64,000 nucleotides of DNA, taken from the UHGV virus genome UHGV-0090440, one strand, 5' to 3'. The number at the start of each line of letters is the position of its first letter. Position 1 is the first letter of the stretch. The notes below the pieces were generated by a model, which saw only the letters and a program-made list of their open reading frames with translations, was not told where the DNA came from and searched no databases. The DNA is from a virus. Positions 2,641-37,342 of this stretch are shown here, one piece after another. A program made the translations under genes and the position numbers.

Positions 2641-3294
2641 CTATCCTTTCTTGAAATCGAAGTTGCCAGCAGTGGCCTGAAAGGTTCCCCCTGCCTTGAA
2701 AGCTATGTCCCCGTTAGCGGTGACAGCAATATTTTCCCCATTAACATTGATGTTGTTGGCTGATTTGACGTTAACACTCCCTCCTGCATTCACGATTACA
2801 TCAGCCGGACCAATGATATATATCTGCCCGGACTCATTCATGCCAATCCTTGAGCCTGCTGCCGTATTGGCAATTTCATAGCCGCCACCAGCAGTTCGTA
2901 CTTCAAGAATATTGTTGCGGTGAATAACGAAGTCTTTCGTTGCTGAGATTTGGGGGCGGGGAGGTGCTCCATCTACTTCCGGCGGCGTCCAGCCGCTACC
3001 ATTGCCTGACGCCTCCGGCGCGACGTTTGGAACTCCGCCAGGCGCATCCTGAGCCGCGCCAACTATCATTGGGCGTCTGGTGTCTATTCGACCGTTAACA
3101 TCTAAATAAGGAAACTCTACCCAGACCAGGTCACCTTTGACTGTAGGTACAAAAGCGTTCCCGATGGGTAACAGGTATTCCGCCCAGGGTAGATCGTCAT
3201 CAGGAACGCCATTCCAGTCAGGTAAAACACGGACTTGAGCACGCATAAGCCCTGCCGGGTGCACAGTTCCAACAATTTGCGCTCTACGCTTCAT
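2641..3294 (-). CDS. putative baseplate spike / gpV-like protein
   Basis: N-terminal OB-fold-like pattern (LPW...G..PTVKGDLVWVEF...G) typical of P2 gpV / Mu gp45-family spike proteins, followed by a Gly/Asn-rich repetitive C-terminus (NAGGSVNVKSANNINVNGENIAVTANGD). Confidence 0.4.
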   Translation of the reverse strand: MKRRAQIVGTVHPAGLMRAQVRVLPDWNGVPDDDLPWAEYLLPIGNAFVPTVKGDLVWVEFPYLDVNGRIDTRRPMIVGAAQDAPGGVPNVAPEASGNGSGWTPPEVDGAPPRPQISATKDFVIHRNNILEVRTAGGGYEIANTAAGSRIGMNESGQIYIIGPADVIVNAGGSVNVKSANNINVNGENIAVTANGDIAFKAGGTFQATAGNFDFKKG

Positions 3295-9444: not shown

Positions 9445-10068
9445 ATGAAGGATGGTGTAGTGAAGTTAAGGGCTTTAGGGGCCGCGCTCGCGGCTATGTT
9501 GGGATGCGTATCTGCTAATACTGCCAATGCAACTGCGTTACCTGCACAATTCAGGGCAGGGCAGCAGGTTATGAATAACGCTGGTGGAGATCATTCACAA
9601 GCGGCCATTATGGACTTTTGCAAGAGGGAGGGCATTCCATTACGGCCTGTTGGAACTCAGTTTATTGGTAAAACTGACTTTTGCGTTTTTGCATATACAG
9701 CATATCTGACGGACAAAGCTATAACAAAAACAGGTTATTCAACCAAAGATACTCTTTCCAGATTAAGTCAGGGATGGCAGCAATTCGAAGTGTATCGCCA
9801 GCAAGGATTAGGTGAGTTATTGCAACCTCTTTTTATGCTTGCGTTGGTGCCAGAGGGGCAGCAATTTTTGGTTAAAAAGGGAATGCTTCGCCAAAGTGAT
9901 ATTGCCGGGTTCGATAGCATGATGGCTTATGAGCGCAAACTAACCGAGCAGCGAAATAAAAAACCATCTGCTTCATGTGTGCAAAGTAAAACAGCAGAAT
10001 ACAGTGCAGTAGCCGGGCCTTTAGCCAAACAAATGGCAGAGCAATGGTGTAAAAAATACGGGCAATAA
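9445..10068 (+). CDS. secreted protein of unknown function
   Basis: N-terminal signal-peptide-like segment (LRALGAALAAMLGCVSANTANA); preceded by an AT-rich intergenic region. Confidence 0.45.
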   Translation: MKDGVVKLRALGAALAAMLGCVSANTANATALPAQFRAGQQVMNNAGGDHSQAAIMDFCKREGIPLRPVGTQFIGKTDFCVFAYTAYLTDKAITKTGYSTKDTLSRLSQGWQQFEVYRQQGLGELLQPLFMLALVPEGQQFLVKKGMLRQSDIAGFDSMMAYERKLTEQRNKKPSASCVQSKTAEYSAVAGPLAKQMAEQWCKKYGQ

Positions 10069-12826: not shown

Positions 12827-13140
12827 GCTGGCGGGGATGGGGAAGGGCAGAAATCATGATACTCCGCCAGTGCGCCGGGACTATGACAGTCGAGGGTATT
12901 GGGAGACTGATCGGGCGTACCGGTGGTGCTGTCAGGACTAAAGCGCGGCAACTGCGGATCAGCATGATTCTGAAAGGAGACTTTCATCCGTCAGCCAAAT
13001 ACCGGCAGAGCGATATAGAACTGGCACGGCAGCTTCATCAGTGTGGTGTTCCCCGCCGTGAGATCGCAGAAAAACTCGAAATGCCCCTGGGAATGATTAA
13101 TCAGTACGTTTATTTCGAAAGGAGAGTACATGAAGTCTGA
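12823..13140 (+). CDS. hypothetical small DNA-binding-like protein
   Basis: 105-aa ORF overlapping the neighbouring stop; HTH-like segment VEGIGRLIGRTGGAVRTKARQL. Confidence 0.3.
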   Translation: MSWRGWGRAEIMILRQCAGTMTVEGIGRLIGRTGGAVRTKARQLRISMILKGDFHPSAKYRQSDIELARQLHQCGVPRREIAEKLEMPLGMINQYVYFERRVHEV

Positions 13141-13831
13141 AGGTTTAACGCCAGAGCAACTGGCGGAGATCGAGCTTTACTATCCGTTACGTGAACGTTA
13201 TTCACCGAAACCAGCGCCTAAATGCCCTGTTTGTGGCGAGGAAATGTCAATGCAGCGCATATCTGGATCACATGTTGTTTATGCCTGTTCCGGCATGGAG
13301 GATGACGGATGCTTCAAAACTGGACGAACTTATGCTGACGAGCATTACAAAAATTCGCGCATATCAGTAGTTGATGGTAGCGATCCTGATGTGATTGAAC
13401 TGCTGGACGAGAACGTGGAGAAGGCTCTAACGCTTGAGAATCTGCGTGTTGAGCTGGAGGCCGCTAAAAAGTGTATTGCAGAGCTGGAAAGCAATTGCGG
13501 GGCGCTGGTGGCGGAATGCCAAAACAAAAAAGCAGCACTTGAGGAAATTCTTAGCCATCTCCCAATTAATCATCCAGATATAGACATCGCATGTGTAGCG
13601 AACATAGCTCATAACAAATTAGGCGAGGCGAAAAGCACTACATCTGAAGCTTACCTTGTTGAAATACAGGCTCAGGGATTGGAGGCATTCGCTTTGACGA
13701 TGCGCGATACCGGAGATGATCCATTTTTTGATTCCGTTGCTTCTGCTTGCGCGGATGCGGCTGACAGGTTCGCAGCCCTGCTTCGTAAAGGACAATCCTG
13801 CCTGCGCCCGAACTTTGAAGGGAAAAGATGA
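13130..13831 (+). CDS. Ea22/Ead-like coiled-coil protein (paralogue 1)
   Basis: Coiled-coil segment [23 protein letters not shown] shared with the three paralogues below. Confidence 0.4.
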
Positions 13832-21038: not shown

Positions 21039-21428
21039 ATGGGCTTCCCTTCTCCTGCGGCGGATTATGCTGAGAGCCGTATTTCTCTTGATCAGCAGAT
21101 AATTAGACATCCTTCAGCGACCTACTTCATGAGGGCAGCTGATAGTCATCATCGTGAGGGAATATTACAGGGTGCTTTGCTGGTGGTTGATTCCTCGCTT
21201 ACTCCGGTTGATGGTTCTCTGCTTGTGTGCGCTATGGAGGGTGAATATCGCATAAAGAGATACAGGAAGTATCCGCGCCAGCACCTGGAGGATTTAAGCA
21301 CCGGGAGGAAAGAGGCGTTACCAGTGGATGACGATGGATGCACGGGGAGTAATGCTGTTTTTGGTGTGATCACTCATGTCATCAATGATGTCCGAAGTGG
21401 GGAATTTGATGATTGTCCGGTGATTTGA
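21039..21428 (+). CDS. humD: UmuD'-like protein (HumD)
   Basis: GFPSPAADYAE..ISLDQQIIRHPSATYF aligns with UmuD (GFPSPAADYVE..IDLNQLLIQHPSATYF); C-terminus VFGVITHVI matches UmuD VFGVVIHVV. The GDSM Ser-nucleophile motif appears replaced (DSHH), as expected for a pre-processed UmuD' analogue. Confidence 0.75.
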   Translation: MGFPSPAADYAESRISLDQQIIRHPSATYFMRAADSHHREGILQGALLVVDSSLTPVDGSLLVCAMEGEYRIKRYRKYPRQHLEDLSTGRKEALPVDDDGCTGSNAVFGVITHVINDVRSGEFDDCPVI

Positions 21429-30911: not shown

Positions 30912-31304
30912 CTACCAGCGAGACAAACGAACAACATGTTTCACTTTTGCGATCCACTTTCCGCGACAACTATTGATTACGGCCTGTGCCAGCTTCAAAT
31001 TGGCTTCAAAATCAGCCTTACTACCATCAGACTCCACCAGCATTCCGCCATCTATTTCTGGTAAACATAGATAATCCTGCTCAACCTGCAGCGGCATTGA
31101 TGGCTCTCTGAATGGCGTTACTTGCTCTGCTTTCCAGCGAAAGCTAACCCTCATCCCCCTGGTGGTCATTACCAGATAGCCTGTTATAGTGCTTTTATGG
31201 CCCACATCAGTACGCGTGGCATTGCATGACACGATCTTACAGTTAGCGATAGACCACTCCATATTGGTGGCCTGTTGAGTGCTTAATTTGGTAGTCCCGT
31301 ACAT
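30912..31304 (-). CDS. hypothetical protein
   Basis: 130-aa ORF. Confidence 0.3.
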   Translation of the reverse strand: MYGTTKLSTQQATNMEWSIANCKIVSCNATRTDVGHKSTITGYLVMTTRGMRVSFRWKAEQVTPFREPSMPLQVEQDYLCLPEIDGGMLVESDGSKADFEANLKLAQAVINSCRGKWIAKVKHVVRLSRW

Positions 31305-31879
31305 CAGAAAGCCTCCCAGTCAGTCGCGATAATATCCACACCAGTTGCAAACCAGTCTGTCTGCGCCTGTAAATCACCATTCATCATTACCAGGCGAGGC
31401 ATCACCATCACATCGCACCCTTCCACAATATCGAATGCCTCTTCCGGCAAGAATTCGAAGAGCTTTTCTTTGCTGCCAATGCTGCCACGGAACATCGATA
31501 TATAGCTCCCTTTAGGCCATGATGTCCGCCGGGCATCAAGCCCTTTCATCATCCAGTAAAAAGCCGAGGAAAAAGGGATATTCTTTTTGCCAATGATTAC
31601 ATTATTCGCTTCTGTGTACTTCAGGAACTTAACTAACCTTACCATTGACTCGGATAACGCAACGTATGGCTCATGATTGATTGCTGACACGCTTACACCG
31701 TGCAATCCAACGCTTACCACTGTCATATCGCCGCTCTGTGCGGTTTCGATATTGACGCCTTTGCGAACTAATGAGGCGTAAAGTTCCTCTCGCTTTTGGG
31801 TCCAGCGTTCCCGCCTCCCTATGAAGTCACTCAAAATGAGATCTTCTTCTGCATATGCGTTATCGTTCGCCGTTAACAT
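31304..31879 (-). CDS. hypothetical protein
   Basis: 191-aa ORF; stop overlaps the next start. Confidence 0.35.
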   Translation of the reverse strand: MLTANDNAYAEEDLILSDFIGRRERWTQKREELYASLVRKGVNIETAQSGDMTVVSVGLHGVSVSAINHEPYVALSESMVRLVKFLKYTEANNVIIGKKNIPFSSAFYWMMKGLDARRTSWPKGSYISMFRGSIGSKEKLFEFLPEEAFDIVEGCDVMVMPRLVMMNGDLQAQTDWFATGVDIIATDWEAF

Positions 31880-32098
31880 AACGTCTCCTTTTTACACGCG
31901 CGACCATCTCTCGGTTAAACCGATAGAGATGTCGAAACTTCGTATTAATTAAGGGTTACAGCCTGAGCGGCTATATGATGAATTGAAAGGAGTTGTGGCG
32001 GTGGTGCCTCCACCTGCCAGGTTAGCCACTCCTGGCGACGTCACTTATCAGAACGTAGTGAATGAAAATGGCTTCGTCACGAGCGCATAGCCGCAATT

Positions 32099-32148
32099 AC
32101 CACAACGGAAACGGCGCTCGCGTTAATTAAACGCCTTTTCCTGTTGTG
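32099..32148. repeat. hairpin element U0 (CACAACGG ... CCTGTTGTG family)
   Basis: ccacaacggaaacggcg / cgccttttcctgttgtg arms; shares the conserved stem base of elements U1-U4. Confidence 0.4.
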
Positions 32149-32322
32149 CGCCGTACTCTTCCGGCTGTCACACCGAATCGCCAGGGTGGTGAGTCCTCGG
32201 TCCGACGATATGAACGGGGCTTGCACATTCCGGCTACCTGGTTTGTTGCCTGAGCTAGGGGAAAAGGTAACCCCTTTAACGTCACCAGACCGCTAACGAC
32301 GCATGTGCCATACGCCGTGTTA

Positions 32323-32398
32323 CAACCAAATATGGTGGCCCCTACCGGACTTGAACCGGTGACCGTGCGATTATGAGTCGCCAGCTCTAACCACTGAG
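32323..32398 (-). tRNA. trnI: tRNA-Ile (anticodon CAT, lysidine type) - could alternatively be Met
   Basis: 76-nt cloverleaf ending CCA; anticodon loop CTCATAA; close to E. coli ileX (GGCCCCTTAGCTCAGTGGTTAGAGCAGGCGACTCATAATCGC...) from memory. Confidence 0.7.
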
Positions 32399-32562
32399 CT
32401 AAAGGGCCAGATTACTGTTAATTCCGCTTACGCTTTTTGCCAGGACCGCGTAAGGCTTTTGCTGCTTGCTCGACCCCATATACAACCACCAGCAGAAATA
32501 AAAATGTCCACCAAGGGTTCTTATCGGCAAACGTCCAAAATTCCATCATGTTCTCTATTTGG

Positions 32563-33390
32563 TTATTTCACCGGAACAAACGGAACAGCGGTATTACTGG
32601 TCATATACTGCGGTAGCGTTCCGTTCCATTTGTTGATCGCTTCCAACTCCATAACGCCGGGGTTCTGGCGCAGAGCCTCACCGCGTAAACGAATGGCATC
32701 AGCTTCAGCCTGGGCTTTTGTGCGAATGGCATCGGCCTGTCCGGCAGCTTCTGCGCGCAGCATGTTGGCTTCTGCTTCGCGTTGCTTGACTTCCTGCTCG
32801 CGTTGCAGAGTTTTCTGGTTCGCCGTGACTTTGGCATTAATGCTGTCGATAACGGTTGGCGGGTACTCCGGCTTGCCCACATATGAGAGGCTCATTACCT
32901 GAATACCGATGGGCGTCATTTCTTCCTGGATGTCTTTAAGAGCTGCATCCAGTAGTTCAGACTTGCCACCGTCGATAAATTTGTCGGTGGTCATTTTGCT
33001 GGCCAGTCGGTTAAGTGCGTCGGCAATCTTCTGGCGCAGATCGGTGTCGGTAATGTCATCCACGCCTTTGCGGTAGGTCTGAAATACAGTTGTGACTTTT
33101 GCCGGATCAACCTTGTAAGCTACACCAATGTGGTAACCAATTGTTGTCCCGTCGCTCATTTGGAAGCTGAACGGATCATCATAGGTCTTCATTTGCTTAA
33201 AGGTCGGGAAGATATAAACTTCTGTGTTCCAGCCTGTCCAGTAGCGACCAACGCCAACTACTTCGCCGACACCTTTATCATCCCCCAGCTTATTTACTTT
33301 GATCCCTACATTGCCTGGTTCTACCCGGTCGCATCCGGTCAGACATAAAGAACCAAAAATAATCGCTGCACTAATCAACGTTTTTTTCAT
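32563..33390 (-). CDS. plp: SPFH/band-7 domain lipoprotein (Plp-like)
   Basis: Signal peptide with lipobox LTGC; SPFH-like core; coiled-coil C-terminal region (QREQEVKQREAEANMLRAEAAGQADA). Confidence 0.6.
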   Translation of the reverse strand: MKKTLISAAIIFGSLCLTGCDRVEPGNVGIKVNKLGDDKGVGEVVGVGRYWTGWNTEVYIFPTFKQMKTYDDPFSFQMSDGTTIGYHIGVAYKVDPAKVTTVFQTYRKGVDDITDTDLRQKIADALNRLASKMTTDKFIDGGKSELLDAALKDIQEEMTPIGIQVMSLSYVGKPEYPPTVIDSINAKVTANQKTLQREQEVKQREAEANMLRAEAAGQADAIRTKAQAEADAIRLRGEALRQNPGVMELEAINKWNGTLPQYMTSNTAVPFVPVK

Positions 33391-33607
33391 TAATCAATTT
33401 CCTGGTTTTTTCACGAAAAAAGACTACTGCAAAAGCCGGGTAAATGAGCGCGAGAAGGACTCCCAACAATACAAGTATTGTGCTGTCAGATGAGATCATA
33501 TTTGGCAAAAGCCAAACATACAGAACCAGTGACACAATCAAACAGAGGACGGCATAAATATATAGCCGCACCCATAGCGTTCGACATTTGTTCGGATTGT
33601 TCTGCAT
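33371..33607 (-). CDS. upl: small membrane protein upstream of plp (Upl-like)
   Basis: 78 aa with two hydrophobic helices; overlaps the plp start. Confidence 0.45.
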   Translation of the reverse strand: MQNNPNKCRTLWVRLYIYAVLCLIVSLVLYVWLLPNMISSDSTILVLLGVLLALIYPAFAVVFFREKTRKLINEKNVD

Positions 33608-33754
33608 CCTCTCACTCCATTATTCAACGAATAAAAAAGCTGCGGTGCCTGGTGCCTCCAGGTGACGTTAACCAGTTAACAATTAACGCCGGGATGTTTG
33701 ATTTAACCACTACGGAGGATTGTTTTAACTGTTCCGCGTGCGCTTAGCCGCATT

Positions 33755-33869
33755 CACCGCAATGGTAAGAGCACTTGGCTGGCTGGGCGGCGATGACGCC
33801 TGTACGCATTTGGTGATCCGGTTCTGCTTCCGGCATTCGCTTAATTAGCCAAATACTCTTAACGTTGCG
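33755..33869. repeat. long imperfect hairpin element U1
   Basis: Arms ccgcaatggtaagagcacttgg / ccaaatactcttaacgttgcg; abuts the 3' end of the tRNA-Ser-like gene. Confidence 0.4.
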
Positions 33870-33956
33870 CTGGCGGAGAGTAATGGAATCGAACCATCAT
33901 CGCTTGCGCAATGGGACGGTTTTCAAGACCGCTTGAGCACCATGCTCCCTACTCTC
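33870..33956 (-). tRNA. tRNA-Ser-like (anticodon TGA), class II, atypical D-arm
   Basis: Acceptor GGAGAGT/ACTCTCC with discriminator G and CCA; anticodon arm GCGGT-CTTGAAA-ACCGT nearly identical to E. coli tRNA-Ser(UGA); long variable arm; T-loop TTCGATT. The D-arm is short and irregular, so it may be a tRNA-like RNA or pseudogene. Confidence 0.4.
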
Positions 33957-34081
33957 CAATTGTTGTGGTTACCGGTACTGATCTCCGGCTTAGCGACCCC
34001 GGCTACTGACTGCATTGCAGTGTGTGAACTCGCCTCGTGTGTCGCTGGGGCATTTCTTTCCGCGCATCAGTCTGCGCATCA

Positions 34082-34158
34082 ACCACAACGGAAAGAGCAT
34101 TGGCTAACCAGGCTCGCCGACTCTTCACGATTATCGGCCCAATGCTCTTACCTGTTGT
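34082..34158. repeat. long imperfect hairpin element U2
   Basis: Arms ccacaacggaaagagcattgg / ccaatgctcttacctgttgtg (about 20 bp stem) around a 34-nt loop. Confidence 0.4.
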
Positions 34159-34340
34159 GCGCTCCGTTTCGTGGAGCTAACGGCGGGTGATCGGGCCGCA
34201 CCAGACTGGACTTATTTCAGCGTTATGCTCATGCCAGAGAATCAAACTGTGATGGTCGGTGCTGAACTCCGACACAGGGTTGTAGCAAGCCCCGCAAAGC
34301 GCGCACTACTGTAGTTGCGGCACATCAGCCTGTGCATTCA

Positions 34341-34435
34341 CCACAATGTTGAGAACACTGGTTGTCACGCTGCCTCGCGACCTTTATTCATAGATTGGGA
34401 TATGACCCCGTTACGCCAATGTTCTCAACGTTGTA
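34341..34435. repeat. long imperfect hairpin element U3
   Basis: Arms ccacaatgttgagaacactgg / ccaatgttctcaacgttgtag; stem differs from U2/U4 by compensatory changes. Confidence 0.4.
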
Positions 34436-34574
34436 GTGCCGGTTACGGTTCCGGCCAGGCTTCTTCCTCAACGGGGTGTTCTCCATACGGACTACCGTTT
34501 ATTGGTCGTTCCTGCGGTTTATGTTGTGAAGCCAGATGCTTATCTTCTGGTTGCTTCAAAGAGCTGCACTTCAT

Positions 34575-34661
34575 CACAACGGTAAGGGTACTTCGTAGGG
34601 ATTCGAACCCTCTGCCAAGCTCGGCGATCTCCGACGTCGCAAAATACCCTTACCTGTTGTG
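34575..34661 (-). ncRNA. hairpin element U4: long stem enclosing a tRNA-like T-arm (candidate small stable RNA)
   Basis: Arms cacaacggtaagggta / tacccttacctgttgtg; the loop on the minus strand contains AGGG-TTCGAAT-CCCT, a canonical T-arm. Lies directly 3' of tRNA-Thr on the same strand. Confidence 0.35.
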
Positions 34662-34662
34662 T

Positions 34663-34738
34663 TGGTGCCGGTTAACGGACTCGAACCGCTGACATCCTGC
34701 TTACAAGGCAGGCGCTCTACCAACTGAGCTAAACCGGC
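34663..34738 (-). tRNA. trnT: tRNA-Thr (anticodon TGT)
   Basis: 76-nt cloverleaf: acceptor GCCGGTT/AACCGGC, D-arm GCTC-AGTTGGTA-GAGC, anticodon loop CTTGTAA, T-loop TTCGAGT, 3' CCA. Confidence 0.75.
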
Positions 34739-34742
34739 AATT

Positions 34743-34829
34743 TGGTGGGGAGTGATGGAGTCGAACCACCCGAGTCGCAATGACAGTAGATTTACAGTCT
34801 ACCCCGCTGCCCCTACGGACTAACTCCCC
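34743..34829 (-). tRNA. tRNA-Tyr (anticodon GTA), class II
   Basis: Acceptor GGGGAGT/ACTCCCC, anticodon arm GTAGA-CTGTAAA-TCTAC (identical loop to E. coli tRNA-Tyr), long variable arm, T-loop TTCGACT, CCA end. Confidence 0.55.
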
Positions 34830-34834
34830 TAAAT

Positions 34835-34909
34835 TGGCGATGGTGGGTGGATTCGAACCACCGACCAGTTGGTTAACAGCCAACTGCTCTACCGCTGAGC
34901 TACACCATC
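34835..34909 (-). tRNA. trnA: tRNA-Asn (anticodon GTT)
   Basis: 75-nt cloverleaf: acceptor GATGGTG/CACCATC, D-arm GCTC-AGCGGTA-GAGC, anticodon arm GTTGG-CTGTTAA-CCAAC, T-arm GGTGG-TTCGAAT-CCACC, CCA. Confidence 0.75.
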
Positions 34910-35106
34910 ACTTGCCGGGTACGTCTCCGGCGAGGGCTTCCACCTCCGTATGCTTTTCGGCGCACCGCGCCCTGGCTGCAATTCGGTAACAGGGGATGCA
35001 TAACCCTGGCTTCCAGCGTGATTAGCGCCTTCAGCATGACGGGATATACCCGTTGCAAGACATTATCCCAGAAAGCCATTAACCAATGGCTGTTACGCGG
35101 GAGGGA

Positions 35107-35189
35107 CGTAACAGGTAAGGGCGCTGACCAGAAAGACCTGACCCTTCTCATTCATCTGGTTAATCACACCAGCGCCCTTGCCTGTTATG
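35107..35189. repeat. long hairpin element U5
   Basis: Arms cgtaacaggtaagggcgctg / cagcgcccttgcctgttatg (about 19 bp) around a 43-nt loop; shares the AACAGGTAAGGG core with U4. Confidence 0.35.
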
Positions 35190-35415
35190 CCTCCCCGTTC
35201 CCTAATACACAGACGGGGACACTCTGCGGTCGATTTTTTGACGGGGGACGACTCATACCCCGTGGCGTCAGGCTTCTTAGGCCGCTACCATCATCAGATC
35301 ATCGTTTGCATTTACTTTAATGGTCGGTTTCTAAACCGCCGCAAAGTCGCTAACCATGACGAAAACCCTAAAAAAGCCCACCCGAAGATGGGCAAATACG
35401 CTACGTATCACACAA

Positions 35416-35488
35416 GAAAGAAGCCGACTGCCTGAACTGGATTCACTTTCAAATGCCCGCTGAAAGGGATCACAAGTCGGCTTCTTTC
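35416..35488. repeat. long perfect hairpin (14-bp stem, 45-nt loop)
   Basis: gaaagaagccgact ... agtcggcttctttc. Confidence 0.35.
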
Positions 35489-35708
35489 TTGATGCGGCAC
35501 TCTCTCCGCCCGTCACCGCTCTGTCTCGGTTGTCGCGTTTGCCACGCCAGCCATAACGAGGTTTAAAGTCTTTGCACGTTCCCATCACTCGACTGCCGTC
35601 TGAGGCTGTTCGTTGCAGCGGGGGTGCCTCCCCCTGGGGATATCCCCGGCCTTACCCCATTCTTTCAAGACACAATGCAAGGCCACATCCGCATAGGTGC
35701 ATTACCGC

Positions 35709-35762
35709 AACATTAAGGAGGCATAGGGCGGTTACCTTTTGCCCTGAGTCTCCTTAATGTTG
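35709..35762. repeat. long perfect hairpin (13-bp stem with nested hairpin in loop)
   Basis: caacattaaggag ... ctccttaatgttg; the loop contains agggc...gccct. Confidence 0.35.
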
Positions 35763-35966
35763 AAGATGTGCATTGATGATTAGATGCAGCATGTACCGTT
35801 ACTCTCTGCCGGACCATCATCAATGAACACCTTAAAAAGACCTTCCGTGGCTCAACATGGACTGTCGTTTACTCCGCAAAGTGCTCTCTCTGAAACCACT
35901 TTCCGCACTAAACCTGCTGAATTTTGGCCTGCACGGTGCCAAAGCGTGCTCTTGCGTTACCATACT

Positions 35967-35977
35967 TTTCTAACGCT
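35967..35977. promoter_or_regulatory. operator-like motif TTTTCTAACGC
   Basis: Copy of the dispersed motif inside the ORF-free region. Confidence 0.3.
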
Positions 35978-35990
35978 TTAATTTGTTAAA

Positions 35991-36062
35991 TGCTGGTGGG
36001 CGAACAATAACCAATAAGTGACTATCAAGCCCAGCAAGCGAAACGTGGGTGCCGCCCACCAG
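35991..36062. repeat. long hairpin (10-bp stem, about 50-nt loop)
   Basis: ctggtgggcg ... cgcccaccag. Confidence 0.3.
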
Positions 36063-36121
36063 CAAGGAAAATTCTATGTTAAGTTACCTTCACAATCAAT
36101 ACATTCGAATCGTAATTTTAG

Positions 36122-36133
36122 ATTTCTAACACA
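36122..36133. promoter_or_regulatory. operator-like motif ATTTCTAACACA
   Basis: Immediately 3' of the stop codon of the 36134-37342 gene, at the edge of the ORF-free structured region. Confidence 0.4.
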
Positions 36134-37342
36134 TTATTTCCCGTAAAGATCTTCTACACCCCCATTCTTCTTATCCCATTCGTTCGCCCATACCCGGCAA
36201 GCGTCAATGATTTCCTGACGACGATCTCCTTGCATGAACGGAATGCTTTCATGGAAACAGCTTGGAATGCAGGCCACACTGAATACAGTATCAAACTCCG
36301 TCTGCTTGATTGCCTCCAGCGTCTCCGGACGCATTTTTAATTCATCGATTGGCGCATCCTTAGAGTCCATAATCCGGCGATATAAGCGCGGAAAATCCGT
36401 CTCCAGGTACGCCATAATTTTATCTGCGAGACATTCGTCTATGTCGGTATTCCAGTCCTTTTCGAAGCCCGGCAGGCGATAGTAAAGCGGCGTTCCCCAT
36501 ACCGATGGGATCACATCCATCGTTAACAGGCGATTGGTTCTGATTTGTTGATGGTAATTAGCCGTCAGCAGTGCTTCGCCACGCTGCCCAGTTTCCGCAA
36601 CCAGGCCGTGCGGATACTCATGGATGTAGGCAATGGCATCCCGCCCATCATACATAAGTGGAAATGTCTCTGGTCTTTGTCCCATGCCACAAGCACGGTT
36701 CAGATCGTGACCAAGCTGTGAGCACTCTCGCTTTAATGTTTCGATAATGCTCTGTGCTGTAGCCAACTTTTTACGCAGTGTGACGCCTTCGCCTTGATAA
36801 TCAATGCATTGCTGATTGAGCTTGGTTAAACGCTCTTTTAGTTCCCGGCGCTCTCTTTTCAGCGTGCGGTTATCCTTCTCCGCAACATCCAGCCGCTTTG
36901 TCAGGCTGGGCGGATAGTCTTTTTTGTAACGGTTCAAATCGGCTTCGGCAGATTTACGCAGTGTATTTGCCTGTTCAAGACGCGCTTCCAGATTGCCGAT
37001 CTCATTACGCATATTCACGGCAAATTGATTAACTGCATCACCCAGGCTTTCAACTGTCGCTGATACGCCTGTGACTTGTGAAAAACGGATCAAGCCATCA
37101 TTAACGGCTTGTTGGTATTCCTCAAACTGATCCACCAGCTTATTGTAATCAACTGCCCCATCATCAAGCAGCTTGTTGATTTCCGCCACCAGGTTATCTG
37201 TAGTGGCAATGACACTCTCGTGCAGTCGCTTTGACAGGTCATCACCCGGATTCCGTTTCTGTATAAGAGCGATTTGTGTGCGCAGCGTTTCAATTGCTGT
37301 CGAGATAATTTCCAGATTAGAAGCATCAGTGTGTTGACTCAT
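36134..37342 (-). CDS. hypothetical protein, coiled-coil N-terminal half
   Basis: 402-aa ORF with an operator-like motif about 25 nt upstream of its ATG. Confidence 0.4.
   Translation of the reverse strand: MSQHTDASNLEIISTAIETLRTQIALIQKRNPGDDLSKRLHESVIATTDNLVAEINKLLDDGAVDYNKLVDQFEEYQQAVNDGLIRFSQVTGVSATVESLGDAVNQFAVNMRNEIGNLEARLEQANTLRKSAEADLNRYKKDYPPSLTKRLDVAEKDNRTLKRERRELKERLTKLNQQCIDYQGEGVTLRKKLATAQSIIETLKRECSQLGHDLNRACGMGQRPETFPLMYDGRDAIAYIHEYPHGLVAETGQRGEALLTANYHQQIRTNRLLTMDVIPSVWGTPLYYRLPGFEKDWNTDIDECLADKIMAYLETDFPRLYRRIMDSKDAPIDELKMRPETLEAIKQTEFDTVFSVACIPSCFHESIPFMQGDRRQEIIDACRVWANEWDKKNGGVEDLYGK

Follow-up and report, generated by a model that had tools for sequence, protein, structure and literature searches.

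Hairpins of one conserved type lie in the leaders of several described phages and prophages, namely just past the 6S/tR' terminator in the late leader of lambda, in the ban leader of P1 and, in the K-12 prophages, at KilS/kilR (the kil leader) of Rac and upstream of dicF (the dicBF leader) of Qin. For Qin, a 190-nt DicF species has been described whose 5' end, mapped by primer extension, depends on RNase III and is lost in delta-rnc. Counted from the DicF 3' end at 1649434, this length places the 5' end at about 1649245, at stem position 12 in the 3' arm of the Qin hairpin, with a possible error of a few nucleotides as the placement uses the stated 190 nt. Secondary sources give the RNase III step of dicBF otherwise, at the 3' end of the 72-nt DicF, and for KilS of Rac, which begins where the 3' arm has its top, a promoter of its own and not RNase III has been given as the source of the start.

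Here, we describe a group of such hairpins in a 64,000-nucleotide stretch of virus DNA (UHGV virus genome UHGV-0090440; hereafter the window), which belongs to a P1/D6-like phage-plasmid. The first-pass annotation had picked out six long hairpins (U0 to U5) in positions 31900-36130, and all of them are present (Table 1). The five tRNA genes that it had placed there are called by ARAGORN, with Rfam in agreement, all on the minus strand, and its description of the region as almost ORF-free is a fair one, the credible genes being those for a 275-aa lipoprotein, a 78-aa membrane protein and perhaps a 43-aa ORF; homologues of this protein cassette are annotated in Ro157c2YLVW and RCS47. The highest Rfam score of the tRNA-Ser gene, 44.6 bits, is for tRNA-Sec and falls short of the gathering score (47), and in the D6 record its amino acid was left unassigned by tRNAscan-SE. 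The tRNA-Tyr gene is absent from P1 and D6 and present in Ro157c2YLVW. The structured leader ahead of the 78-aa gene is nearly identical, by direct comparison, to the Qin dicF-dicB and the Rac KilS-kilR spacers and is related to STnc100/PasD, with an Rfam STnc100 score of 37.1 bits that does not reach the gathering score (47). Downstream of U0, a weakly leader-like stretch is followed by the Tad2-like gene.

Table 1 Features of the tRNA and hairpin region of the window and its edge.
Feature	Position	Strand	Basis
Tad2-like gene, past U0	31304-31879	-	Pfam Tad2-like E 1e-9
U0, shortest family hairpin, 48 nt	32101-32148	-	model R1 57.6 bits, E 9e-15
tRNA Met/Ile2(CAT), anticodon CAU	32333-32408	-	ARAGORN, Rfam; P1 annotation is tRNA-Ile2
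Protein-coding cassette (78-aa, 275-aa and 43-aa ORFs)	32418-33607	-	ORF list
43-aa ORF, perhaps credible	32418-32549	-	ORF list
SPFH/Band_7 lipoprotein, 275 aa	32563-33390	-	ORF list; Pfam Band_7 E 7.8e-31
78-aa membrane protein	33371-33607	-	ORF list
Structured 5' leader ending in T-run, ahead of 78-aa gene	33641-33761	-	Rfam; Qin/Rac comparison
U1, family hairpin with degenerate arms	33757-33870	-	sequence, folding
tRNA-Ser(UGA), atypical, followed directly by U1	33871-33957	-	ARAGORN
U2, family hairpin	34084-34159	-	folding; covariance model R1 30.6 bits
Small stem-loop GCUCCACGAAACGGAGC, adjoining U2 5' end	34161-34177	-	sequence
U3, diverged family hairpin CACUACAA-C-GUUGAGAACAUUGG / CCAGUGUUCUCAAC-A-UUGUGGUG	34339-34438	-	inverted repeat I4
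U4, family hairpin, ~21 bp, bulged A	34575-34661	-	sequence, folding
tRNA-Thr(UGU), CCA encoded, U4 starts 1 nt later	34663-34738	-	ARAGORN, Rfam, sequence
tRNA-Tyr(GUA)	34743-34829	-	ARAGORN, Rfam
tRNA-Asn(GUU)	34835-34909	-	ARAGORN; Rfam tRNA 75.5 bits
U5, first family hairpin upstream of tRNA trio	35100-35196	-	inverted repeat I2
Intrinsic terminator, 3' of 17-bp hairpin	35376-35393	-	terminator scan
17-bp hairpin, perfect arms	35413-35491	-	inverted repeat I7
Hairpin, 22-nt arms 86% complementary, 11-nt loop	35708-35762	.	inverted repeat I5
Hairpin, 12-bp perfect arms, 50-nt loop	35991-36064	-	inverted-repeat search
Sigma-70-like promoter TTGATT-17-TAGAAT, upstream of 12-bp hairpin	36071-36099	-	consensus match only

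The structure and its folding strand were directly observed: all six hairpins fold far better on the minus strand than shuffled sequence (z -3.4 to -6.5), with stem stabilities of -24 to -53 kcal/mol, and the minus strand gives the stabler fold for U0-U4 (for U0, -24.4 versus -18.4 kcal/mol on the plus strand). Minus-strand values are -45.7 kcal/mol for U3 (z -5.0), -41.4 kcal/mol for U4 (z -5.3) and -53.4 kcal/mol for U5 (z -6.5), the last of which reaches -58.7 kcal/mol on the plus strand. Two plus-strand C.A mismatches in U1 are G.U pairs on the minus strand, a 1x1 internal loop replaces the bulge in U3, and in U5 the A that mostly bulges elsewhere has a pairing partner, which makes the base a perfect palindrome. 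The compensatory stem changes noticed at first reading are borne out in U2 (GTAAGAGCA/TGCTCTTAC), U3 (GTTGAGAACA/TGTTCTCAAC) and U4 (GTAAGGGTA/TACCCTTAC), as are the close junctions of two tRNA genes with their hairpins, U1 lying directly at the 3' end of tRNA-Ser and U4 1 nt past that of tRNA-Thr, and the T-arm AGGG-TTCGAAT-CCCT in the apical part of U4. This tRNA-Thr(+1 nt)-hairpin junction recurs in 10 distinct contexts. Three further hairpins listed at the upstream end of the region also exist, and in relatives they differ too little to reveal covariation. One of them forms, with its terminator, the counterpart of the 'dicF-like region' annotated in P1 and is not a U-family member; the hairpin with 22-nt arms is likewise outside the family, and in relatives its loop alone varies.

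The same element occurs in unrelated phages across Enterobacterales, with more than 80 distinct copies in IMG/VR phage contigs, and an Rfam scan of the family gave no matching family. On the minus strand its base reads 5'-CACAAC-A-GG...CC-GUUGUG-3', nearly invariant and with the bulged A, within a helix of about 19-23 bp in which stem position 9 is frequently a 1x1 mismatch. Covariation marks the upper part of the stem, position 17 is mostly U.G, and the loop is arbitrary (5-66 nt, 51 unrelated families). In related genomes it is the arms that are conserved, not the loops. Among 72 distinct copies, pairing is kept in 94.7% of cells, and at 12 of 19 pairs both partners have changed; not one of 500 shuffles matches the observed value on any of five measures, and slid controls pair in only 36-62%. 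The covariation thus exceeds chance. Counted under a strand-neutral filter, G.U pairs outnumber A.C by 90 to 15, or by 37 to 15 once positions 9 and 17 are left out. In 63 of 75 cases the hairpin and the gene downstream of it point the same way, in the other 12 they are opposed, and the U hairpins lie on the same strand as the tRNAs and P1's Pban. Covariation, G.U excess and co-orientation together argue for an RNA element on the transcribed strand, in line with the earlier proposal of selection on RNA structure, here on the minus (tRNA) strand. Further, 87 of 106 contexts have a tRNA 3' end, a terminator or a small stem-loop next to the hairpin on its 5' side, small stem-loops abutting it in 55 of the 106 versus a random baseline of 18%.

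In our analysis, U0-U5 are probably RNase III processing or insulating signals at the junctions of tRNA, sRNA and accessory-gene (moron) modules. They would be copies of a conserved stem-loop RNA in a long, mostly untranslated minus-strand leader, where host RNase III would bind the helix, whose length fits this enzyme, and cut both arms at a predicted position about 12-14 bp above the base; for the hairpins of the window cleavage is predicted by homology, with its RNase III dependence taken from the Qin copy. Such cutting would divide one long polycistronic, non-coding RNA into its tRNA, small-RNA and mRNA parts. A tRNA 5' of a hairpin, as at tRNA-Thr|U4 and tRNA-Ser|U1, would keep about 15 nt as a trailer to be trimmed by exonucleases, and the RNA 3' of the hairpin would gain a defined 5' end, be it a DicF/KilS-type sRNA, an STnc100-like small-gene leader or, in other phages, a tRNA-Arg with its first 3 nt inside the stem. 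In this way the hairpins may insulate tRNA, sRNA and moron modules from their neighbours. An enzyme supplied by the host would explain how unrelated phages across Enterobacterales come to carry one element. RNase III demands little of the sequence that it cuts, which leaves the bulged A and the near-invariant base of 8 bp unexplained; they may reflect another binding partner or spread by recombination.

The first-pass annotation had instead suggested genes for stable small RNAs that include a tRNA-like domain, in the manner of Y RNA/YrlA or the T4 stable RNAs, and serve as decoys for tRNA-processing or tRNA-targeting enzymes, which we find distinctly unlikely. A T-arm-like motif (4-bp stem with a UUCRANN loop) does occur in three unrelated loop families and on the functional strand only, with 0.025 occurrences expected in shuffled loops; in U4 it (AGGG-UUCGAAU-CCCU as RNA) is stacked on a 7-bp helix that resembles an acceptor stem and has CCC after it, the hairpins lie among Tyr, Asn, Thr and Ser tRNA genes, and the T-arm-bearing subset including U4 is intriguing. 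However, the motif is present in only 8 of 83 distinct hairpins, the loops of the other ~90% are unrelated, and it is the lower stem that is conserved, not the apical domain. ARAGORN makes no tRNA call at U4, and the likeness to Y RNA fails in that Rfam Y RNA, tmRNA and tRNA-like models give no match even up to E 10. The supposed tie to the tRNA cluster does not hold either, as copies also lie in the lambda late, Rac kil and Qin dicBF leaders, and many precede ordinary genes with no tRNA gene nearby. The one experimental lead also points the other way: the 5' end of the DicF precursor inside the 3' arm of the Qin hairpin indicates a processing signal and not a stable decoy RNA. In a further, highly improbable reading the helices are structural insulators that stay uncleaved and, with no specific endonuclease, block Rho loading, 3' exonucleases or RNase E scanning that depends on the 5' end. 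Their stability, the long untranslated RNA in which they lie and their start right after a tRNA 3' end, terminator or small stem-loop, where they would form the 5' end of the downstream fragment once processed, would suit such a role, but it leaves the near-invariant base, bulged A and constant stem length unexplained, and the Qin homologue gives an RNase III-dependent end.

The arms also coincide with homology breakpoints, which in comparisons with P1, D6 and Ro157 were directly observed at 32147 (in U0, versus P1 and Ro157), 33773/33778, 34141, 34323 and 34437/34438. Versus P1, the window has an extra spacer and tRNA-Ser unit between two hairpin copies. Among same-loop pairs, 97 share the 5' flank only, 49 the 3' flank only and 72 neither, and 40 further pairs have both flanks in common and different loops. 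These breakpoints, the reshuffling and the hairpin-flanked unit would suit sites that act mainly as DNA, folded single-stranded or by short homology, and move cassettes between phages with RNA structure incidental, much like integron attC sites or the PeSL motifs of T4-like phages; variable length (48-110 nt), conserved ends, an extra-helical base and uniform orientation are all attC-like. We consider this unlikely, since there is no linked recombinase gene and none common to lambda, P1 and Rac-/Qin-type phages, the core on direct reading departs from the attC consensus RYYYAAC/GTTRRRY, and a promoter scan found no PeSL-type promoter. Moreover, selection at the RNA level predicts both the strong G.U excess and the conserved U.G pair, the Qin homologue is cut in vivo by RNase III, and ordinary homologous recombination already predicts breakpoints at short conserved repeats, with no need for a dedicated function. 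Arms resembling terminal inverted repeats around a variable interior, with same-loop copies in different contexts, could also suggest MITEs, non-autonomous insertion-sequence derivatives. This origin is hardly credible given the 51 unrelated loop families, copies confined to phage and prophage leaders and oriented with genes, and covariation and G.U bias unexpected of transposon ends; neither a consistent target-site duplication nor a same-ended insertion sequence with clean empty/filled-site pairs and duplications was seen. For RNase III processing signals, recombination between modules at the arms would be a by-product: because the arms are the sole sequence common to otherwise unrelated modules, they would join these by recombination, which would explain the mosaic structure.

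Counterparts of individual hairpins are found in described phages. In keeping with RNase III processing, no duplex between PR' and S of lambda is longer than the family hairpin, and a 1988 paper, going by its title, reportedly dealt with sites at which RNase III processes the Q-mediated late RNA in vivo. HK022, on the other hand, is without the element, so lambdoid late expression can do without it. U2 is 96% identical, loop included, to the lambda hairpin after tR', and the loop of U1 is a sequence found 3' of the hairpin in lambda. The P1 region homologous to the window is the C1-controlled ban-operon leader, in which U3 is kept, the U5 element is also present and the hairpin is preceded by the same small stem-loop as U2, and near-identical copies of U4 occur in P1, D6 and SJ46-like contigs.

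The six long hairpins U0-U5 are present between the tRNA genes at the positions proposed by the first-pass annotation, and all of them fold far better than shuffled controls. They are members of a family with conserved arms, whose consensus on the tRNA-carrying strand reads 5'-CACAAC-A-GG(U/A)AAGAGCAUUG ... CAGUGCUCUU(U/A)CC-GUUGUG-3'. Searching IMG/VR for the pattern formed by both conserved ends returned at least 120 loci, and 89 of the 126 matches listed are true long hairpins, with unrelated loops of 5-66 nt among the matches listed. Known relatives include a 76-nt copy in lambda, 96% identical to U2 and located immediately 3' of the 6S/tR' terminator and ahead of S, copies in the ban leader of P1, and two copies in K-12: one in Qin between ydfC and dicF, and one in Rac (1418480-1418565, minus strand; 9481-9566 of the Rac sequence L126) that overlaps the start of KilS upstream of kilR. 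In a scan of one genome per species, exact matches came from 12 species, all Enterobacterales apart from a single short scaffold, a probable contaminant. A covariance model built from loop-trimmed arms detects U0 and U2 and penalises long loops, making it a poor detector, and anchored pattern searches were relied on instead. An E-value scan of the region and the lambda late leader against Rfam gave nothing on the hairpins except microRNA-model noise, and a literature text search with the arm sequences found no paper carrying the hairpin sequence. The family thus appears to be uncatalogued and its breadth unrecognised.

Hairpins and neighbouring features of the window, in order of coordinate
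Feature	Coordinates	Strand	Remark
191-aa gene (orf6 of D6)	31304-31879	-	directly 3' of U0; C-terminal Tad2-like (Thoeris anti-defence 2-like), Pfam E 1e-9
D10 repeat, copy 1	31992-32016	+	GGUGCCUCC-centred
U0	32101-32148	-	
STnc100/PasD-like leader	33641-33761		RF02076, 37.1 bits, E 1e-6, model positions 31-147 of 206; gathering threshold (47) not reached
U1	33757-33870	-	starts directly after tRNA-Ser
tRNA-Ser(UGA), atypical	33871-33957	-	best Rfam model tRNA-Sec, 44.6 bits, below gathering score
U2	34084-34159	-	
125-aa ORF, plp/upl equivalent	34315-34692	+	from ORF list; Cys-rich; no Pfam match
U3	34339-34438	-	
U4	34575-34661	-	starts 1 nt past the encoded CCA of tRNA-Thr
U5	35100-35196	-	
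17-bp perfect hairpin and terminator	35376-35491	-	no Rfam DicF match
D10 repeat, copy 2	35612-35636	+	GGUGCCUCC-centred

The first-pass annotation had also argued that selection acts on RNA structure in these elements, and this is borne out. In an alignment of the arms of 72 distinct copies (among the matches listed), standard pairs occupy 94.7% of cells and 12 of the 19 pairs show changes on both sides (91 cells), values reached by none of 500 column shuffles; when the partner columns are slid by 1-3 positions, pairing falls to 36-62%. The conserved stem comprises 19 bp plus a bulge and often reaches 21-23 bp. Variation is almost absent from its lower eight pairs and its bulged A; a 1x1 mismatch (U.U) is usual at position 9, positions 13, 15, 16 and 19 co-vary, and position 17 is U.G in 53 copies. 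The arms are conserved across the family and the loops are unrelated. A strand-neutral filter counted 90 G.U against 15 A.C pairs among the matches listed, or 37 against 15 when positions 9 and 17 are left out. U0-U4 are more stable on the minus than on the plus strand by 0.3-8.5 kcal/mol, and the closest ORF of 120 aa or more on the downstream side lies on the hairpin strand in 63 cases and on the opposite strand in 12 (among the matches listed, with crude gene calling). Together, the G.U excess, the minus-strand stability and the co-orientation with downstream ORFs identify a sense-strand RNA element.

The window comes from a phage-plasmid of the P1/D6 type. The region 31900-36130 is 96% identical to phage D6 across 61% of its length and matches P1, RCS47 and Ro157c2YLVW patchily at about 92-93%. 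In P1 it corresponds to the leader of the ban operon, which C1 controls; there Pban/Op72, the 'dicF-like region', tRNA-Asn, tRNA-Thr, tciABC, tRNA-Ile(CAT) and ban follow each other on a single strand; in D6 and the window, the ban-leader material of P1 is placed between a pmgS-like gene and orf6. ARAGORN and Rfam recovered the five minus-strand tRNA genes reported earlier, and for the counterpart of tRNA-Ser(UGA) in the D6 record no amino acid was assigned by tRNAscan-SE. The description of the region as almost ORF-free holds as well, the credible genes being an SPFH/Band_7 lipoprotein, a 78-aa membrane protein and perhaps a 43-aa ORF. In P1 (NC_005856, here L001), the plp and upl CDS (L001 3660-4229) run antisense through the counterparts of hairpins U3/U4 and overlap tRNA-Thr; both these CDS and their 125-aa equivalent in the window are probably spurious annotations. 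RCS47 uses the names Plp and Upl for other genes of this stretch, apparently the SPFH lipoprotein and the 78-aa protein. On the basis of its Tad2-like match, the 191-aa gene is likely an anti-defence gene sitting behind a hairpin and leader. The tRNA sets of P1-like elements are modular (clusters in L021, L022, L023, L025, L040, L053 and L076), comprising {Asn,Thr,Ile2}, {Asn,Thr,Ser,Met}, {Asn,Tyr,Thr,Ser,Met} and {Arg,Tyr,Thr,Ser,Met}. Of the tRNAs in these sets, those for Tyr and Asn are attacked by anticodon nucleases, colicin E5 being an example.

The segment at 33641-33761 is nearly identical to the Qin dicF-dicB spacer and the Rac KilS-kilR spacer, and its sub-threshold Rfam match indicates a relationship to STnc100/PasD, with membership not certified. 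Based on this near-identity and the shared neighbours, the window shares its building blocks with the dicBF and kil leaders, and the three leaders follow, as read from sequence, a common plan of hairpin, sRNA or tRNA, structured leader and small gene. A second STnc100-like copy, suspected by eye at 31960-32100, was rejected when it gave no Rfam match. The end of the STnc100-like leader carries the motif CACCUGGAGGCACCAGGCACC, similar to the D10 repeat, GTTG(T/C)(G/A)GCGG(T/G)GGTGCCTCC(A/C)CCTG. At 35376-35491 a 17-bp perfect hairpin and the same terminator replace the P1 'dicF-like region' (L001 4809-4910), which is homologous to the segment of the Qin 190-nt DicF precursor between hairpin and DicF. 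The further hairpins noted earlier near 35413, 35708 and 35991 are present without the family base sequence, and relatives are either 97-99% identical across 35413-36064 or differ there in loops only.

Across 106 distinct contexts among the matches listed, the upstream neighbour of the hairpin is a small stem-loop in 55 (random baseline 18%), a T-run or terminator in 22 (baseline 4%), a tRNA 3' end 1 nt away in 10 and something else in 19; in one case it is isrJ, a short PR'-type RNA of a Salmonella-type prophage. Recurrent downstream neighbours among the matches listed are a small hairpin, GUGAAUGCGCAGGCUGAUGCGC, the STnc100/PasD-like leader, D-arm-like sequences and a tRNA-Arg(UCU) that overlaps the 3' end of the hairpin stem by its first three nucleotides. 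A prophage contig carrying the hairpin ahead of tRNA-Arg (L016) also contains a group II intron D1-D4 domain (13005-13230, minus strand; Rfam, 186.6 bits).

An experimental link to RNase III exists for the Qin homologue. A 190-nt DicF species is lost in a delta-rnc strain, primer extension shows that RNase III makes its 5' end, and the 53-nt form of DicF is made by RNase E (bioRxiv 10.1101/2023.04.14.536235); Faubladier et al. 1990, as cited in that preprint, agree on the RNase III 5' end. As the 3' end of DicF is at 1649434 in K-12, a length of 190 nt places the start of the precursor near 1649245, or position 21246 of the Qin sequence L125, a coordinate accurate only within a few nt because it derives from the stated length. 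This point corresponds to stem position 12 in the 3' arm (L125 21239-21257) of the family hairpin. For lambda, the title of Daniels, Subbarao, Blattner and Lozeron 1988 (Virology 167:568; reference 49 of PMC7547250) reports in vivo RNase III sites in the Q-mediated late RNA; no other duplex in the late leader is as long as the family hairpin, and we infer that the sites are located in this hairpin. With regard to KilS, published transcription-start data suggest a promoter of its own, and in agreement with this an extended -10-like TGTTAAATT lies in the loop of the Rac hairpin, some 7 nt ahead of the 5' end annotated for KilS; the position of that end at the Rac hairpin is therefore neutral evidence on RNase III. 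Hairpin loops can evidently carry functional cargo, as in the Rac case.

The family hairpins provide a helix close to two turns long (20 bp or more), as described for RNase III substrates, and they fold on the transcribed strand, that of the tRNAs and Pban. The best-supported explanation, which we consider rather probable, is that the hairpins form a conserved family of stem-loops at the junctions of modules, serving as RNase III processing signals or as insulators. In the proposed mechanism, host RNase III would bind the two-turn helix and cut both arms 12-14 bp above the base, leaving the upstream tRNA with a trailer of about 15 nt for exonuclease trimming and giving the downstream RNA a defined 5' end; a downstream tRNA-Arg would be released from the stem that otherwise holds its first three nucleotides. 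The defects of the lower stem (bulged A and position-9 mismatch) would hold RNase III away from this part of the helix and allow the two halves to come apart once cut. A downstream CCACAAC or CAGCACAAC offers the 3' arm GUUGUG(G) an alternative pairing partner, as seen for 32101-32148 with 31995-32001 in the window and for 3067-3080 with 3148-3161 in L124. Formation of the hairpin therefore precludes the helix that closes the following leader, and vice versa, and the two could form a structural switch following cleavage.

The first-pass annotation had suggested that U0-U5 might be stable RNAs, comparable to Y RNAs, acting as decoys. The canonical T-arm that it described in the U4 loop (AGGG-UUCGAAU-CCCU) is present. 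Among the matches listed, 8 of 83 distinct hairpins carry a T-arm-like motif; they belong to three unrelated loop families including that of U4, and the motif is confined to the functional strand, against 0.025 occurrences expected in shuffled loops. Like bacterial Y RNA (YrlA) and the T4 stable RNAs, U4 and the two other loop families thus combine a long stem with a T-arm. For the family as a whole the idea is not supported, as most copies lack a tRNA-like part and have no Rfam match; a cmscan of 31000-37000 with E up to 10 gave no match to Y RNA. What is left of it is the T-arm subset. In U4 the T-arm stacks on a 7-bp acceptor-like helix, UAUUUUG/CGAAGUA, followed by CCC, and inspection of sequence and fold revealed no recognisable D-arm mimic. 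If U4 were cut as at the Qin site, the apical RNA set free would carry an acceptor end like that of a tRNA: it would start at nucleotide 1 of the 7-bp helix and end in ...A-C-C, which the CCA-adding enzyme could complete. Speculatively, this minority of copies may be precursors of an RNase III-matured tRNA-like RNA.

The hairpins also coincide with the joints of a mosaic. BLAST breakpoints between the window and P1, D6 or Ro157 fall at 32147, 33773/33778, 34141, 34323 and 34437/34438, at or next to hairpin arms. A single hybrid hairpin in P1 replaces U2, the spacer, tRNA-Ser and U1, so that the window carries an extra tRNA-Ser unit between two hairpin copies. Among 121 full-flank instances (among the matches listed), pairs with the same loop share both flanks in 105 cases, only the 5' flank in 97, only the 3' flank in 49 and neither in 72, while 40 pairs with different loops share both flanks. 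Based on this re-assortment and the breakpoints, the arms are places of module joining, which we regard as probably a consequence of the arms being the sole conserved sequence between unrelated modules, a selected role being the less likely alternative. A more far-reaching interpretation, to which we give little credence, is that the hairpins are the joints of exchangeable cassettes, acting as RNase III insulators in RNA and as preferred crossover points in DNA, with the T-arm copies additionally serving as tRNA-like RNA precursors. A hairpin would then bound each tRNA, sRNA or moron module in the untranslated leaders of temperate enterobacterial phages, which, if true, would account for how P1-like and lambdoid phages come to reshuffle tRNA sets and anti-defence genes with one another.

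One homologue is thus already known experimentally, through the RNase III-dependent DicF end in Qin, and what appears to be new is the family and its breadth. If the RNase III interpretation is true, many temperate phages of Enterobacterales, among them lambda and P1, which count among the most thoroughly studied phages, use a single conserved RNA signal to organise how their accessory cargo is expressed, including tRNAs, sRNAs of the DicF/KilS type, small toxic proteins and anti-defence genes. The interpretation would further show how phage tRNAs set tight against long stems could mature, and offer a testable reason for the recurrent positions of mosaic joints in these leaders. For annotation, the element is missing from Rfam, and antisense ORFs running through the hairpin, such as P1 plp and upl, are probably not genes. 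The element could also be used as a natural portable RNA insulator.

Several other identities were considered for the repeated palindromes. A MITE is disfavoured by flanks without consistent target-site duplication and by the 51 unrelated loop clusters among the matches listed. A resemblance of the 3' arm UGCUCUUU to rrn boxA, over the first 8 nt of the latter, was noted, and the boxA reading was rejected because this part of the stem co-varies and is base-paired. An antitermination RNA of the HK022 put type was also rejected, HK022 having no family member and the hairpins standing after terminators, not before them. By-eye comparison with consensus sequences gave no fit to CsrA, Hfq, DnaA or IHF motifs. 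Integron attC sites, folded as single-stranded DNA, share several features with the U hairpins. Like them, they are imperfect palindromes that vary in length, have conserved ends around unrelated central parts, contain an extra-helical base and are uniformly oriented at cassette boundaries. Unlike attC, the U hairpins come with no integrase, attI or Pc promoter; no integrase-like ORF was found in 31000-37000 or beside the lambda, Rac and Qin copies, and read directly against the attC core RYYYAAC ... GTTRRRY, CCACAAC ... GTTGTGG misses 2 of 4 degenerate positions on each side. The evidence favours RNA over single-stranded DNA.

Among known systems, the Qin dicBF site is homologous, with the hairpin CAUAAC-G-CG-A-AAGCGCAUGG ... 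CCGUGCGCUU-C-CG-GUUGUG, and its neighbours match those found in the window: an sRNA of the DicF type and a small gene's STnc100-like leader. It differs in being a single copy without tRNA genes, whereas the window interleaves six copies with five tRNAs. As far as we are aware, the dicBF papers (Faubladier et al. 1990; bioRxiv 10.1101/2023.04.14.536235) do not present the hairpin as belonging to a family. For the joining of modules at hairpins, the nearest described parallel is the PeSL (promoter-early stem-loop) motif of T4-like phages, an early promoter with a terminator-like stem-loop (PMC2839356, PMC4122927). There too, conserved stem-loops lie at the boundaries of variable modules and form the end points of the insertions, deletions and swaps by which close relatives differ. 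Unlike PeSL, the U hairpins have neither a promoter consensus nor a U-tract, and a promoter search of 31800-36250 found one sigma-70-like site only, not at a U hairpin. The RNase III signals of T7 (R0.3 to R18.5, e.g. R1.1) are stem-loops between protein genes, with internal loops directing single cuts. In both cases, repeated stem-loops separate the units of long phage transcripts, and cuts by the host enzyme, putative for the U family, release RNAs and define their ends. The U family differs from the T7 signals in its conserved base sequence and bulged A, in being common to unrelated temperate phages and in flanking tRNAs, sRNAs and morons. We propose that the U hairpins are a device of the same kind as the T7 signals, placed in untranslated tRNA, sRNA and moron leaders.
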